From a virus (lineage: Duplodnaviria > Caudoviricetes), in the IMG/VR virus record IMGVR_UViG_3300031645_000001, positions 1-50,673 of that record: DNA of 50,673 nt, one strand, 5' to 3'. Of the stretch, positions 7,966 through 35,768 are shown one piece after another. Below the pieces are notes generated by a model that saw only the letters and a list, made by a program, of their open reading frames with translations, did no database searches and was not told the DNA's origin. Numbering within the stretch: the stretch's first letter is position 1; every line of letters starts with the position of its first letter. Both the position numbers and the translations under genes were made by a program.

Positions 7966-8154
7966 TTAGTGCTTAGTGCCTGAATGCTGTACGGCTTATC
8001 CCCGATATTATTGTAGGAAAATATATATATAGAATTATATATATATAGAGATATAGAGATATAATAATATATATATATAATGTTAGTATCTAGTGTCGTT
8101 GTTATTAAAATGACCAGACATAAGCCGTACAGCATTCAGAGACTAGAGCACTAA
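7966..8154. other. Inverted repeat enclosing a TA-rich tract; candidate replication origin
   Basis: CTGAATGCTGTACGGCTTAT (7980-7999) perfectly inverted at 8120-8139; (TA)n-rich core at about 8020-8080. Confidence 0.55.
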
Positions 8155-15825: not shown

Positions 15826-16827
15826 ATGCTAATCCCCTACCACCCTACGTGGGACATAAAAGATTCATCTAAACTAGACACCTCCATCGAGTGTCTACGG
15901 CAATACTTCTTTCGTTACCTTCTCGGCTGGCGTCCTGATTATCCTGAACATGACCTTTACTTCGGTCAAGCTTGGCATCTCGCTCGTGAATACCAACTAC
16001 TAAACGGCTACCAAGATTTCCAAGGCGCTTATCAAGTATTTGAAGAATACTACCGCAAGGAATTTCCACCTGAAGGCGACGAACTCTACAAACCTAAAAC
16101 TCCAACAGGTGTACTAAACGCTCTGATGGAATTTGAAGCTCAATACTCTCGTGACTTAACTGACAATGAAGTAGTTGAAATAGACGGTGTTAAGATGACT
16201 GAAATTTCAGGCACTGTACCTATTGACGAAAATCGTACAATCTGCTATCGAATGGACTCTGTAATGAGGAGATTGGAAGATGGCAAGATCTTCTCCTGGG
16301 ATCATAAAACTACTCACGAAAAGTATCTATTAGGTCGACAGTGGTCTGAGAACTTTCACTTAAGTTTCCAGAATGGTACTTACACTCACTGCCTTTACTG
16401 TATGTTTCCTATTGAGCAAGTCTTAGGCATCGAATTCTGTGGTGTAGGTTTTACGTTCCTAAAGCGTGGATCTAAGAATCGTCCAGCAGGCTACCATGCT
16501 TCACTACGTAGAGTCCCTGCCTTTAAAACTCCTGAGCAAATGAATACTTGGCTCTGGACTATTAACAATCAGATGGATATACTAGACCGTGAGATGGATC
16601 GTCTCTCACATTGTAAGGAAGGTGACAGCGTCTTAATGGCGTTCCCTATGAACCCTAAGGCTTGCACAAACTATCGAGGCTGTCCCTTCCACGACTATTG
16701 CCTAGCATGGCAAAATCCACTACAACATTGCTACGAACCACCTATTGGTTTTAGAATTGAGTTCTGGAATCCAATGGAGCAGGATACTAGAAATAGAAAA
16801 GACCTTGAATGGAAAGGAGATAATTAA
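15826..16827 (+). CDS. PD-(D/E)XK exonuclease (Cas4/AddB/RecB-like)
   Basis: YRMD...WDHKT, Q..Y motif, C-terminal C..YRGCPFHDYC. Confidence 0.85.
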   Translation: MLIPYHPTWDIKDSSKLDTSIECLRQYFFRYLLGWRPDYPEHDLYFGQAWHLAREYQLLNGYQDFQGAYQVFEEYYRKEFPPEGDELYKPKTPTGVLNALMEFEAQYSRDLTDNEVVEIDGVKMTEISGTVPIDENRTICYRMDSVMRRLEDGKIFSWDHKTTHEKYLLGRQWSENFHLSFQNGTYTHCLYCMFPIEQVLGIEFCGVGFTFLKRGSKNRPAGYHASLRRVPAFKTPEQMNTWLWTINNQMDILDREMDRLSHCKEGDSVLMAFPMNPKACTNYRGCPFHDYCLAWQNPLQHCYEPPIGFRIEFWNPMEQDTRNRKDLEWKGDN

Positions 16828-17060: not shown

Positions 17061-17230
17061 TGCTAACACTTGAAAATACACTAAAGCTAATCAACGACTT
17101 AAAAAGACCTGATCAAGAGTTCTACGTTGAAGATCAATGGGGAAGACTTTACGAGGTAGAAGATGTCAGAATCTCAGATGATATGTTGATAGTTGACATT
17201 GACTTTATTGAATCAAAGGGGAGTAACTAA
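17060..17230 (+). CDS. Hypothetical protein (56 aa; not in the ORF track)
   Basis: TAATG overlaps at both ends; MLTLENTLKLINDLKRPDQEFYVEDQWG... Confidence 0.7.
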   Translation: MLTLENTLKLINDLKRPDQEFYVEDQWGRLYEVEDVRISDDMLIVDIDFIESKGSN

Positions 17231-17589
17231 TGAAAATATTAAGTAATAAAGAAATTGAATATAAAGACTGGTATGATAAAAATGACGATCCTTATGGTAA
17301 AGCTTGTCTTATTTTTGCTGAAAGATGGGCAGAACTGATGGAAGAAGCTATAGCCAAAGGAGAAAAACTTGAGTTAGTAGCTAAACAACTATCTCATGAT
17401 GCTGACGAAGAAGGAATAACAGGCTTTATGTACGGTATGGCAGTTAATATTCTCTCTAGTGTCTGGATACATAGAGAGAAACTAAGAATTTGGCATAATC
17501 TCAATACCCAAATAAGTAATGAAGGAGAAAAAGCTAATGAATCTGGAAAGGTTTTAAATCCAGCACTTTTAAATATAAGAGGTAACTAA
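17230..17589 (+). CDS. Conserved phage hypothetical protein
   Basis: GITGFMYGMAVNIL...W.H pattern; coupled start. Confidence 0.75.
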   Translation: MKILSNKEIEYKDWYDKNDDPYGKACLIFAERWAELMEEAIAKGEKLELVAKQLSHDADEEGITGFMYGMAVNILSSVWIHREKLRIWHNLNTQISNEGEKANESGKVLNPALLNIRGN

Positions 17590-17591
17590 CT

Positions 17592-18434
17592 GTGGCCTAC
17601 AATTACCATAAGGAACTACAAAAAGTAAAGGAATTTTACGAGGGTGACCCACTTCAAAAGCGTTTCTCAGCACTTGTAACAGGGGAAACTAACGCTGGGA
17701 AAACTTTCATTCTCCGTACAGCACGGCGTCCTATTCACATAGACTCGTTTGATCCAGGAGGTACCAAATGTCTTAGGGATCTCATTGAAAAAGGTGACGT
17801 AATAGCTGACACTCGCTGGGAATCTGATGATCCTTTCAGTCCTACAACTTTCGCTGAGTGGAAGAAAACTATTGATATAAGAATGAGAATAGGTTATTTC
17901 AATCACTTTGGAACTTATTGCTTAGATTCTGCAACTACTTTTGGCGACGCTGTAATGAATGAACAGTTAGCTAGCAAAAATCGAGCAGGTGAAGCTCCTC
18001 AGCATCGTCATGACTATAATCCACAGAAGGTAAGTATGACTAATTATATCAAGAAACTAATGCGCTTACCTTGTGACTTTATCATGACTGGACACTTACG
18101 AGAGATTAAAAAGCTAGTCCGTATAGACCCTAAAACTGGGATAGCAACTGAAGATATAAAGTATCGCTTCTTAACAACTGGTCAAGCAGTTGTAACTATT
18201 CCACTTCTTTTTGACGAGATCTATGTCATAATAGGTAAAGATGGCAGAGGACGTGAACCTAAGCGTGAAATGCTTATCGACTCACTAGGTGAGTACATTG
18301 CTAGGTCACGCTTGAAAGCTAACGGTAAATTAGAAGCAAAGGAGCCTCCTGACATCCGTGCGCTGCTAAAGAAAATAGGGCTAAGTTGGGAGGATAAACC
18401 TAAGTTGGATTTGAAAGGAGGTGATAAAGAATGA
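17592..18434 (+). CDS. AAA ATPase, Sak4/AAA_24-like recombinase
   Basis: Walker A GETNAGKT, YCLDSAT, IMTGH; between exonuclease and SSB. Confidence 0.8.
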   Translation: MAYNYHKELQKVKEFYEGDPLQKRFSALVTGETNAGKTFILRTARRPIHIDSFDPGGTKCLRDLIEKGDVIADTRWESDDPFSPTTFAEWKKTIDIRMRIGYFNHFGTYCLDSATTFGDAVMNEQLASKNRAGEAPQHRHDYNPQKVSMTNYIKKLMRLPCDFIMTGHLREIKKLVRIDPKTGIATEDIKYRFLTTGQAVVTIPLLFDEIYVIIGKDGRGREPKREMLIDSLGEYIARSRLKANGKLEAKEPPDIRALLKKIGLSWEDKPKLDLKGGDKE

Positions 18435-18637: not shown

Positions 18638-18663
18638 TTAACTATTAACGAAGGAGAACTATC

Positions 18664-19080
18664 ATGTCATTAGTTGACTACAGCGATTTAGAAAGAGACA
18701 TTGACGATGCACCTGAGCCCAAGGTTCTTAACAGAGGAGCAAAAGTAAACGCTCGCATCATCTTTGTAAATGAAGGGATCTCAGACAAGAATGGAGCTCA
18801 GTGGTACATGCCTACCTTTGATGTACCTGATGATTCTATGGTAGTTGAGTTCAACGATTTCTTCTGGGATCTCTCAGAGCAAAACAAGGTTGACCCAAAG
18901 CAGTTCCAACGTAACCTTTATCGATTCAAGAATTTTGCAGAAGCTTTCGACATTGACTATTCCCGTCCTTTCTCATGGACTGATGACCTTCTAGGTAAGG
19001 AAGGTTGGGTAATCCTTGGGACTAAAAAAGACGACTATGGTGAGAAGAATTCTGTCTCGAAGTATGTCTCTGGAAAGTAA
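18664..19080 (+). CDS. ssb: Single-stranded DNA-binding protein (DUF669-like OB fold); -1 frame extension to 19121 ends in DDEIPF
   Basis: Follows the Sak4-like ATPase; beta-rich; acidic IPF tail encoded in the -1 frame just after the stop. Confidence 0.75.
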   Translation: MSLVDYSDLERDIDDAPEPKVLNRGAKVNARIIFVNEGISDKNGAQWYMPTFDVPDDSMVVEFNDFFWDLSEQNKVDPKQFQRNLYRFKNFAEAFDIDYSRPFSWTDDLLGKEGWVILGTKKDDYGEKNSVSKYVSGK

Positions 19081-19084
19081 CCAA

Positions 19085-19123
19085 GCCTAGAATGGTTGAA
19101 GATGATGAGATTCCATTCTAGGC
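19085..19123 (+). other. 11-bp stem-loop, candidate -1 frameshift stimulator
   Basis: GCCTAGAATGG / CCATTCTAGGC, 7 nt after GGA AAG. Confidence 0.6.
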
Positions 19124-19132
19124 ATTAATCAA

Positions 19133-19157
19133 TGATTGTACGAAATTCGTACAAACT
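19133..19157. repeat. 25-bp dyad motif copy 12
   Basis: TGATTGTACGAAATTCGTACAAACT. Confidence 0.9.
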
Positions 19158-19209
19158 TATTAAGGTGAGGGTGGGAAACTGGTGGGCAAAGTAAAGTGTA
19201 ACCTTAATA

Positions 19210-19234
19210 AGTCCATCCAATAATCGAACGAACT
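19210..19234. repeat. 25-bp dyad motif copy 13
   Basis: AGTCCATCCAATAATCGAACGAACT. Confidence 0.8.
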
Positions 19235-19297
19235 TAAAAAAGGGGATTAAAGATAACAACTAATAAAAATGTTGCTGCAGTAAGAAGAGAATCTCAG

Positions 19298-19531
19298 GTG
19301 GAATCTGAGATATCTATATTAAGTCAGTCATGTAATGAGCTTATTGATACAATATCAACACTGGAAGATAGGTTAACTAATATACTAAACTCAGAACTTC
19401 CATGCAAAGCTGAGGCGGATAAAGATGAGAAAGAAAGAGTCCCACTTGCAAATGCAATAAGAAGTGAGTCAGATAAGATAGTATACACAGTTCATAAATT
19501 GGCAACTTTAATTAACAGAATAGAACTGTAA
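19298..19531 (+). CDS. Hypothetical coiled-coil protein
   Basis: Frame is open back to ATA 19253, which follows an AGGGGA RBS. Confidence 0.6.
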   Translation: MESEISILSQSCNELIDTISTLEDRLTNILNSELPCKAEADKDEKERVPLANAIRSESDKIVYTVHKLATLINRIEL

Positions 19532-19556
19532 CTAACCCAAAACAAAGGAAGCAGCT

Positions 19557-34857: not shown

Positions 34858-34882
34858 ATATCGTTCGATAATCGAACAAACT
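34858..34882. repeat. 25-bp dyad motif copy 19
   Basis: ATATCGTTCGATAATCGAACAAACT; overlaps TAG. Confidence 0.85.
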
Positions 34883-35768
34883 AAAAGAAAGAAGCTGCTA
34901 ATCCTAGCACTCCACCTATAACAGCTCCAGCAGGATTACCTCCACTTACCATATAACCAGCTGATGCACCAGACATAGCACCTCCAAGTGCCTTTGAAGC
35001 TTGACTAGGTTCATTTTGAGATGTAGTAGCTGCAGATCCTGCCCCTGCCATAGCACTAATTATACCTCTAACATTTTCAAATAAGTTAATATCCCACATA
35101 GCGTCTTTAGCTCTATATTCAAGATTTGCTCTATCAAGATCTAACCTACTTGCATAGTATAACTGATACATGTCAGAATAGACCTTAATAACACTGGTGT
35201 TCCACTCTAAATGTTTAGCAAACTGTTCATTAGATATACTAAGTGCGTGAAGTCTAATTTGTGAAGCAAACTTATTAATAGACTTAACATAAGCATCTTG
35301 AATAATAGCCTTTCCCATTACAAAAGTCGTTGATTGCACTGAGTTAATATCTCTCATACCAGCTAGAAACTTAGGCAAAACAACTGTGTCTATATCATCT
35401 TGTAACAGTGCAGCCTGTGCAGATATAGCATTTTGGATCTCAGCTCCATCAATTACATCTGTATATATCTGACCCCATAAAGCATGGAGATCCAGTCCAG
35501 CCATGAACTTACCAAACATATCCCAGAGAGATGGAAAGTCAACTAACCCATAATCAACTCCAAATAACTCTGATGGTATATCTACTGAAGCATAGTCTCC
35601 ATAAGGCGATAGTCCAAGAGTAGCATTGAAGATGTCTGTAAAACTTGATGTAGGTTCATCGGCTTCTTCATGATTTAAGTACTGTTCATGCATTGTCTCT
35701 AAGTAAGGAGCATAACGTACAGTAGTTTCTGTATCACCACCTCCACTACTTCCACCACCACTACTCAT
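34881..35768 (-). CDS. Probable ejection protein with C-terminal glycine zipper
   Basis: MSSGGGSSGGG start; ALGGAMSGASAG...AVIGGVLGLAASFF. Confidence 0.65.
   Translation of the reverse strand: MSSGGGSSGGGDTETTVRYAPYLETMHEQYLNHEEADEPTSSFTDIFNATLGLSPYGDYASVDIPSELFGVDYGLVDFPSLWDMFGKFMAGLDLHALWGQIYTDVIDGAEIQNAISAQAALLQDDIDTVVLPKFLAGMRDINSVQSTTFVMGKAIIQDAYVKSINKFASQIRLHALSISNEQFAKHLEWNTSVIKVYSDMYQLYYASRLDLDRANLEYRAKDAMWDINLFENVRGIISAMAGAGSAATTSQNEPSQASKALGGAMSGASAGYMVSGGNPAGAVIGGVLGLAASFF

Follow-up and report, generated by a model that had tools for sequence, protein, structure and literature searches.

The C-terminal tip of SSBs, the proteins that bind single-stranded DNA (ssDNA), is the docking site for replication, repair and recombination proteins on ssDNA, and to our knowledge all textbook SSBs carry one tip per subunit. 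In dnaX, one gene gives two forms, tau and gamma, by -1 slippage with a 3′ stem-loop, and these forms differ in the C-terminal interaction part; phage lambda uses the G_GGA_AAG heptamer. The subject of the present analysis is the end of an SSB-like gene in IMG/VR virus record IMGVR_UViG_3300031645_000001. The whole stretch analysed, hereafter the window, represents the entire genome of a phage (50,673 bp, with direct repeats at its termini), in which, judging from sequence comparisons, programmed -1 frameshifting probably yields both a tailed and a tail-less SSB from one gene. Regarding the slip sites concerned, E. coli shifts very readily at G_GGA_AAG, which is also given as a g-t shift site of a haloarchaeal virus, A_AAG slips productively behind P-site codons that do not re-pair (A_CGA_AAG in cdd and G_CGA_AAG in IS1222), and the slip site of E. 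coli dnaX is A_AAA_AAG (PMC5009743). With respect to the tip, the last six SSB residues were found to be needed for Sak4 binding, loading and stimulation in HK620 (PMC5928155). DDDIPF tips are found on DUF669 proteins of prophages, truncation of Gp63 at its C-terminus makes recombination less efficient, and the published module combines a Cas4-type exonuclease, a DUF669 SSB and a Sak4-like protein (PMC13687109).

The open reading frame (ORF) of the SSB-like protein ends in GTC TCT GGA AAG TAA (stop at 19078-19080), and both the sequence and the ORF list agree with the earlier note on this point. Preceded by a TGA at 19041-19043, the -1 frame stays open from 19044 until the TAG at 19119-19121; its translation around the junction reads ...W-stop-EEFCLEVCLWKVTKPRMVEDDEIPF-stop and ends in L-W-K-V-T-K-P-R-M-V-E-D-D-E-I-P-F, which bears out the continuation from the last lysine codon to a TAG at 19121 described in that note. 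The predicted -1 product has the C-terminus VEDDEIPF-stop, 14 residues past the OB (oligonucleotide/oligosaccharide-binding) domain, and the tailed isoform would reach 152 amino acids (aa). This DDEIPF end resembles the tails that 24 of the 120 listed homologs (the best 120 of 457, the family sample used throughout) carry in frame, for instance ...SKPVESDEIPF and ...VDDDIPF. At the junction the heptamer is phased with the 0 frame as G_GGA_AAG in the nearest relative (L001) and in contigs X3 and X8 from other sequencing runs, and the T variant of the window and of contig X6 retains the A_AAG tetramer. The candidate stimulatory elements at the site are a stem after a spacer of 7 nucleotides (nt) and the TAA immediately 3′ of AAG; no upstream Shine-Dalgarno-like stimulator was seen in the window sequence. 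GGGAAAG occurs at two other sites in the window, 12363 (+) and 35310 (-), which are uninformative on slippage in the host. The former is out of phase, and the latter (35310-35316) lies in phase as G_GGA_AAG inside ORF 34881..35768 (296 aa), where the -1 frame is shut after 10 codons and no stop codon adjoins, so that it is probably a chance occurrence.

The perfect 11-bp stem that the earlier note had placed 7 nt after AAG was confirmed, with arms that are 100% complementary and a spacer spanning 19078-19084. RNA folding returned the hairpin as the minimum-free-energy structure, at -19 kcal/mol and with a z value of -2.49, with 2 of 200 shuffles as stable. Perfect stems of at least 11 bp with a loop of at most 30 nt number eight in the 50,673 bases of the window (three in one TA repeat), against zero or one in each of 10 shuffled genomes; the window stem is also the longest among the gene ends of 66 distinct relatives, the other 65 reaching at most 9 bp. 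In L001 one G-C pair becomes G-U and the hairpin is retained, at -17.2 kcal/mol. Chance does not account for the hairpin, which is probably a 3′ stimulator of slippage. A scan for intrinsic terminators found none at the hairpin, and no Rfam family reached its gathering score in the whole window, the region 18950-19350 giving two sub-threshold chance matches.

Beyond the tail, a perfect 12-bp inverted repeat with a 34-nt loop (19155-19212) lies downstream of the SSB gene. In L001 and in the X3 and X8 contigs, A19159G accompanies T19208C as a compensatory change from A-U to G-C, and A19201G gives a U-G pair; the element is also kept in L068 and L012, immediately behind their short-form SSB genes, with the same stems and different loops, and it is probably a functional RNA or DNA hairpin. 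Between this conserved hairpin and the tail, a perfect 9+9 palindrome (19136-19154, TTGTACGAA A TTCGTACAA) looks like an operator-type protein-binding site.

Bridging of the junction was judged on assembled contigs from other public runs, and all three contigs that bridge the site keep the frame of the window without an indel: record 4 of X3 (590 nt, 18660-19238, 0 gaps), record 18 of X8 (433 nt, 18837-19243, a single gap at 19173) and record 8 of X6 (151 nt, 19068-19218, identical to the window). The X7 contig ends short of the site. The protein of L001, which is the same contig as L061, is 98% identical to that of the window, with the same stop and the same -1 tail. The junction is therefore real DNA in several natural haplotypes, namely T19071/C19118 (window and X6), G19071/C19118 (X8) and G19071/T19118 (X3 and L001). 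G19071 gives the canonical heptamer G_GGA_AAG, and C19118T, the sole tail substitution seen, leaves Phe unchanged in the -1 frame and replaces a G-C pair of the stem by G-U. In addition, two protein clusters at 90% identity or more comprise nine proteins, of which eight are distinct, 138 aa long, derived from JGI, ENA and Logan assemblies, and end in SKYVSGK at the same stop. The earlier note had pointed to an indel at the junction, or to relatives made continuous by one extra base, as what would tell against frameshifting. No indel was found, frame and stop being shared by 3 of 3 contigs and 8 of 8 SGK-ending variants, and no continuous relative of that kind occurs above 73% identity among the best 120 of 457 homologs.

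The same layout recurs in other SSB genes. IMG/VR was scanned for GGGAAAGTRA followed 10-40 nt later by [D/E]-I-P-F-stop, with a separate version for TAG. The TAA/TGA scan returned five loci: the index contig, an unrelated chance sequence in two copies, L153 and L154. L153 is a phage SSB with a Q/P/G-rich linker and the end ...QQQPGK-TAA, its -1 frame reading VITDFDDDIPF. L154 is a PF00436 SSB of the classical type, sharing about 85% identity with SSBs of Psychromonas, which ends ...GGQQAPGK-TAA, has VTYTEPSMDFDDDIPF in the -1 frame and is followed by an intrinsic terminator. The TAG scan also returned five loci, which were L242 (same contig as L165; ...QRGK-TAG, -1 frame VAPQEPSLDFDDDIPF), L244 (...NHSGK-TAG, -1 frame VDKVQHFDFDDDIPF) and three contigs of one lineage, in which the motif falls in a harmless phase of a continuous ORF. 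Altogether, the tip-proximal motif stands in the frameshift phase in five lineages of SSB genes, the index clade included, and in harmless phases in one. The heptamer in the same phase with an immediate TAA or TAG was found in six others (L153, L154, L165, L244, L241 and L247), and the cassette NNG GGA AAG TAR with a -1 DDxIPF tip in five further lineages belonging to two unrelated SSB families. Evidence from protein ends, for which the DNA motif plays no part, points the same way. Among the best 120 relatives of the L154 SSB, 101 end in IPF and six distinct ones end in ...QQ(Q)APGK (Psychromonas-type, 79-100% identity, with varied linkers and sources); among the best 120 relatives of the L153 SSB, six end in ...QQPGK, at 100, 99, 98, 72, 71 and 48% identity. 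IMG/VR scans with the L153 and L154 proteins gave nothing useful, as poly-Q patterns swamped the output.

A motif-blind survey was also performed, in which an alignment of the L153 family was compared with IMG/VR and the best 80 of 421 relatives were taken, 78 of them analysable. An in-frame acidic tip was present at 50 loci, a -1-frame tip at 5 (L158, which is L153, L165, L170, L182 and L203), an in-frame non-acidic end of the PPF type at 8, a tip followed by an in-frame extension at 9, and no tip at 6. L165 thus turned up independently of the motif. L170, L182 and L203, a sister clade of Erf-associated phage SSBs ending ...NFNQPQR-TAG, revealed a second heptamer: A_AAT_TTC is retained in all of them, five codons ahead of the stop, and the -1 frames give KFQPAP...DD[D/S]IPF, with a short extension behind it or none. 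The ...QPQR end was seen in seven listed proteins. That another canonical slippery site occupies the same position in the gene speaks for selection of the frame change as such. Another arrangement was observed in L186, L213, L223, L234, L254 and P0211, from two families, in which the DIPF tip is internal and is followed by a conserved extension of about 14 residues (APIGL....L.HC[IM]); by its position, such an in-frame extension would bury the normally C-terminal Phe.

Cultured phages provided two further cases. A protein search of cultured-phage genomes found the L153-type SSB family in 247 records, 13 of which were opened, and the cassette was present in 2 of these 13, one of the two having been picked as a relative of the other. 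Vibrio phage 1.076.O (MG592452.1, coding sequence NVP1076O_09), found by the protein search, ends ...GYNQAGK at GCG GGA AAG TAG and has VGSGQQPPNLGDEWDADIPF in the -1 frame, followed by a terminator. Vibrio phage 1.210.O (MG592580.1, NVP1210O_08), its DNA relative with 76% nt identity over the gene, ends ...GQQQGK at CAG GGA AAG TAG and has VASGQQPPNLGDEWDDDIPF in the -1 frame. The differences between the two tails fall 0, 3 and 8 times on the first, second and third codon positions of the -1 frame, and synonymous against non-synonymous codons number 7:2 in the -1 frame, 0:8 in the 0 frame and 1:8 in the +1 frame, which reads as the signature of a -1 frame that is translated and held under purifying selection. 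Both GenBank records annotate the short ORF alone and no slippage. The other 11 opened records (H1, H4, H15, H45, H54, H78, H79, H80, H91, H97 and H111) have in-frame tips or a tip plus extension. As a separate observation on annotation, the SSB genes of L252 (Vibrio phage 1.042.O, MG592425.1) and L253 (1.091.O, MG592466.1), with an in-frame NNEPPF end, are unannotated, and a small opposite-strand ORF is annotated over the Q-rich linker instead.

In the protein's own family, the 120 listed homologs comprise 94 short forms ending ...KYVxG[KR]-stop, 24 long forms with in-frame IPF, VPF, APF or DPF, and the 2 of the frameshift clade. Within 500 nt downstream of 87 short-form loci, an acidic xPF-stop in any frame was found in the window, L001 and L061 only. 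None of the 84 others holds a remnant tail in this range, and neither do any of the 8 short-form loci near two long forms (10 were analysed, the other 2 having in-frame tails). Moreover, the post-stop sequences of close long and short relatives have no similarity at all, which indicates that frameshift followed by decay is not the usual route of tail loss. Conservation within the family amounts to three DNA haplotypes, eight protein variants and one synonymous change in a shallow clade. The earlier note had proposed looking for conservation of NNA-AAG-stop, the hairpin and a -1 IPF in homologs. In the own family the arrangement is confined to L001/L061 among the 87 short-form loci, but it reappears convergently in L153, L154, L165, L244 and Vibrio phages 1.076.O and 1.210.O, mostly without a comparable hairpin.

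The proposal of the earlier note, two SSB isoforms from a programmed -1 frameshift, is supported at the sequence level by the intact junction and by the recurrence in other SSB families, the latter having moved the odds towards it. According to this mechanism, most ribosomes would terminate at the TAA after ...TCT GGA AAG and release the 138-aa OB-fold ssDNA-binding protein, and a fraction would slip back one base at (G/T)_GGA_AAG. Slippage may follow two routes. One is re-pairing of tRNA-Lys from AAG to AAA during the slow decoding of the stop codon in the A site; the other, for the G variant, is simultaneous slippage of the tRNAs for Gly and Lys. The hairpin probably assists in the process. 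The slipped ribosomes would then read GTA ACC AAG ... and add VTKPRMVEDDEIPF (14 residues), producing the longer isoform with an SSB-type acidic tip. By analogy with HK620, the tip would be a handle that recruits partners to SSB-coated ssDNA, the Sak4-like annealase encoded nearby being a likely client and host proteins possible ones, in which case the efficiency of frameshifting would set the number of handle-bearing subunits on the DNA. For a broader claim, that a -1 frameshift upstream of the acidic tip is a widespread and repeatedly evolved device of phage and mobile-element SSB genes, usually G_GGA_AAG with the stop directly behind it and sometimes A_AAT_TTC, setting the fraction of SSB that bears a tip, the balance of evidence is favourable by a modest measure.

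Several findings weigh against programmed frameshifting. A rival explanation is that of a tail being lost, in which a recent 1-nt deletion in the G3A4 run of a once-continuous, tailed gene has left a young -1 remnant, the protein functions tail-less like most of its relatives, and any slippage is incidental and unselected. Such a deletion would give exactly the window sequence and, because G3A4 runs are prone to indels as well as to slippage of ribosomes, the junction heptamer does not count as independent evidence. Tail-less forms ending at the same residue make up 94 of the 133 rows of the core-domain tree, so that the tail is dispensable in relatives; the tail state underwent at least 15 changes on this tree, at least 4 of them forced by starred (well-supported) branches; and the frameshift arrangement is limited, in its own family, to a single shallow clade (a 100-starred group on a long stem of 0.33). 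The divergence between the window and L001 is a mosaic of 0 to 46 differences per 100 nt, which leaves no usable neutral rate, and with so little statistical power the single change in the 46-nt tail proves no constraint. As a consequence of the dispensable tail, the shallow clade and the mosaic divergence, programmed frameshifting and a recent deletion could not be separated by comparing sequences of the own family alone. Outside it, P0251 of the L153 lineage (96% identical) is continuous and ends ...QQQPGKVITDFDDGIPF, the predicted trans-frame product bar one residue, which indicates that frameshifted and continuous states interconvert. To these points it must be added that the window haplotype has T instead of G at heptamer position 1, which weakens P-site re-pairing; that the other cassette-bearing SSB genes are mostly without a comparable hairpin; that L153, L154 and L244 came from the motif search itself; that genes with the cassette are in the minority in all families examined; and that no RNA runs are listed among the public sequencing runs containing the stretch. 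However, tail loss in progress does not account for the lack of remnant tails at other short-form loci, for the dissimilar post-stop sequences of close relatives, for a selected 11-bp hairpin at canonical spacing, or for the recurrence of heptamer, stop and -1 tip with a -1 coding signature, and it is considered unlikely.

A related possibility is a "saviour indel", a concept described for the G-run of herpesvirus thymidine kinase (PMC5009743), in which the deletion was selected to strip the tip from most of the SSB and residual slippage supplies the small amount of tailed protein that is needed. The gain might be lower toxicity or evasion of SSB-sensing host defences: phage SSB-like proteins with DDIPF tips activate defence-associated reverse transcriptase (DRT) systems (bioRxiv 10.64898/2026.10.27.754916), phage SSBs are reported to be toxic to bacteria and a truncated DUF669 SSB is partly functional (PMC13687109), and an anti-Thoeris Tad4 gene lies two genes upstream in the same phage. 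Nothing here links the tail to any defence system, however, and the recurrence across families fits a general stoichiometry device equally well, so that this special case, which overlaps with programmed frameshifting, seems rather improbable. Less probable still is that the hairpin and the tail codons serve another role, either as a terminator, processing site or DNA-level element or as the source of a free MVEDDEIPF peptide started at ATG 19092. The two other perfect inverted repeats nearby (19136-19154 and 19155-19212), which also count against programmed frameshifting, suggest that the hairpin may have another purpose, the compensatory A19159G/T19208C pair and the conservation in L068 and L012 speak for function in the second repeat, and the ATG does open the last nine codons of the tail. 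Nevertheless, this ATG lies inside the stem with no Shine-Dalgarno-like sequence before it, no T tract follows the hairpin, Rfam gave no match, and a free nine-residue peptide explains neither the open frame from the slip site onwards nor the layouts of the other SSB genes. Finally, a sequencing or assembly error, with one base missing from the A run of a gene that is truly continuous, could be suspected from the short homopolymer context (GGAAAG), but it is effectively refuted by an IMG/VR contig and three independent contigs from other runs, which have the same frame with differences in the surrounding sequence, by eight distinct protein variants that stop at the same place, and by the same structure in two isolate-sequenced Vibrio phages.

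The features of the junction and of the surrounding genes are collected in Table 1.

Table 1. Positions of the elements at the end of the SSB-like gene and of neighbouring genes in the window.
Feature	Coordinates	Strand	Basis or remark
0-frame gene, 138-aa OB-fold SSB-like protein (tail-less isoform)	18664..19080, stop included	+	ORF list
Slip site T_GGA_AAG (candidate)	19071..19077	+	sequence; G_GGA_AAG in L001 and in the X3 and X8 contigs
0-frame stop TAA, "shifty stop" position	19078..19080	+	directly 3′ of the slip site
-1-frame extension V-T-K-P-R-M-V-E-D-D-E-I-P-F + TAG (predicted)	19077..19121	+	-1 translation
Hairpin, 11-bp perfect stem, 17-nt loop	19085..19123 (arms 19085-19095 / 19113-19123)	+	7 nt after the slip site
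PD-(D/E)XK nuclease, same recombination module	15826..16827	+	PF12705, E 1.3e-6
Tad4 (type I Thoeris inhibitor) homolog	17230-17589		PF25186, E 6e-30
Sak4-like / AAA_24 annealase	17592..18434	+	PF13479, E 5.2e-7; phrog_124, E 7e-13
68-aa ORF	between the Sak4-like gene and the SSB-like gene
dCMP deaminase, family-A DNA polymerase with uracil-DNA glycosylase (UDG)-like domain, ThyX, DUF3987 protein	beyond the SSB-like gene

The 138-aa window protein matched nothing in Pfam and PHROGs, and none of 85 aligned family members matched DUF669 (PF05037) at E <= 1. An AlphaFold (AF2) model built from the family alignment (predicted local distance difference test, pLDDT, 88.5) shows an OB fold whose last beta-strand ends at residue 134, so that in the model the short product ends four residues past it. 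The best solved structure retrieved by Foldseek was PrgE of pCF10 (8s4s_B; E 5.6e-6, TM score 0.58-0.60), followed by OB domains of RPA, and among predicted viral structures (BFVD) many DUF669 proteins matched, several of them with TM scores of 0.56-0.70. The designation "SSB-like" used in the earlier note is consequently upheld by fold, through these PrgE, RPA and DUF669 matches, but not by sequence family; the modelled fold and the gene neighbourhood make the protein DUF669/PrgE-like, with the Pfam model for membership by sequence not matched.

Regarding other features of this genome, the Tad4 homolog lies within the recombination module as the next gene upstream of the Sak4-like one. No tRNA genes were found in the window, a scan of genome contigs for the host gave only two short contigs of metagenome-assembled genomes, and searches of the cultured-phage collection by DNA and protein with the window gene gave no match. 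Window and L001 share identical stretches of about 700 nt beside blocks of 30-46 differences per 100 nt, and about 305 nt of the window (19240-19545), including ORF 19298..19531 (77 aa), are missing from L001. The ninth protein of the two clusters mentioned above, P0126 (139 aa), joins 104 N-terminal residues of the window type to a C-terminal part that belongs to a different short-form lineage (...KKYVIPR), a composition that, read from the sequence, is direct evidence of recombination inside the SSB gene. At 8021-8081, TA-repeat palindromes with perfect stems of 11-14 bp occupy the gap between divergent gene blocks and may be an origin or promoter region.

If the phage does make both isoforms, the number of docking sites on an SSB-coated strand would be a translationally set variable, which bears on the number of tails that an SSB assembly needs and may also matter for the way in which phages escape toxicity or defence systems that sense SSB. 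If the device is widespread, such genes would form a new class among recoded genes, and the SSB interaction hub would be subject to a layer of control not seen before; tail autoinhibition, partner titration or SSB-sensing host defences are factors against which the ratio could be adjusted. Gene callers truncate SSBs with the cassette, and as a result protein databases do not show the tip. The two Vibrio phages, 1.076.O and 1.210.O, are in culture and make the idea directly testable at the bench.

The earlier note knew of no described case, and the literature searches agree, as those combining frameshifting or slippage with SSB and phage found no description of a frameshift-encoded SSB tail. 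The available text of the recoding review (PMC5009743) contains neither "SSB" nor "single-stranded DNA", and neither term occurs in the main texts of the GeneTack survey and the E. coli heptamer study, whose supplementary tables (PMC3711429, PMC4066793) might list an SSB cluster or heptamer efficiencies. Among known systems, the HK620 SSB-Sak4 pair and the DUF669 Gp63/Sak4-like Gp64 pair ("Healer") resemble this locus in placing an OB-fold SSB beside a Sak4-like ATPase and a PD-(D/E)XK/Cas4-type nuclease. Their SSB tails are in frame, however, with no frameshift mentioned in the available parts of those papers, and the window protein falls below the DUF669 Pfam model. The G/GT frameshifting of tail-assembly chaperones in tailed phages employs the same X_XXY_YYZ class of site and likewise gives a short major and a C-terminally extended minor product. 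Here, in contrast, the gene encodes a replication/recombination SSB and not a virion assembly factor, the 0-frame stop abuts the heptamer, and the predicted extension is a linear interaction motif of 14 residues and no domain. The locus shares with dnaX a protein of DNA replication, an ...A_AAG site and a downstream stem-loop; it differs in that the dnaX frameshift leads to the shorter form, whereas here it would lead to the longer, interaction-competent one, and in that no upstream Shine-Dalgarno-like stimulator was seen in the window. Bacillus subtilis cdd (A_CGA_AAG) is similar in having A_AAG near the gene end, a short C-terminal extension and imperfect P-site re-pairing, but the review calls the cdd event incidental (PMC5009743), whereas the SSB cassette is met with again in several families, with selection acting on its -1 frame. 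The arrangement is thus of a known kind, -1 programmed ribosomal frameshifting that gives a C-terminal extension, and what appears to be new is that it serves the SSB interaction tip and does so repeatedly, in three SSB folds unrelated to one another.

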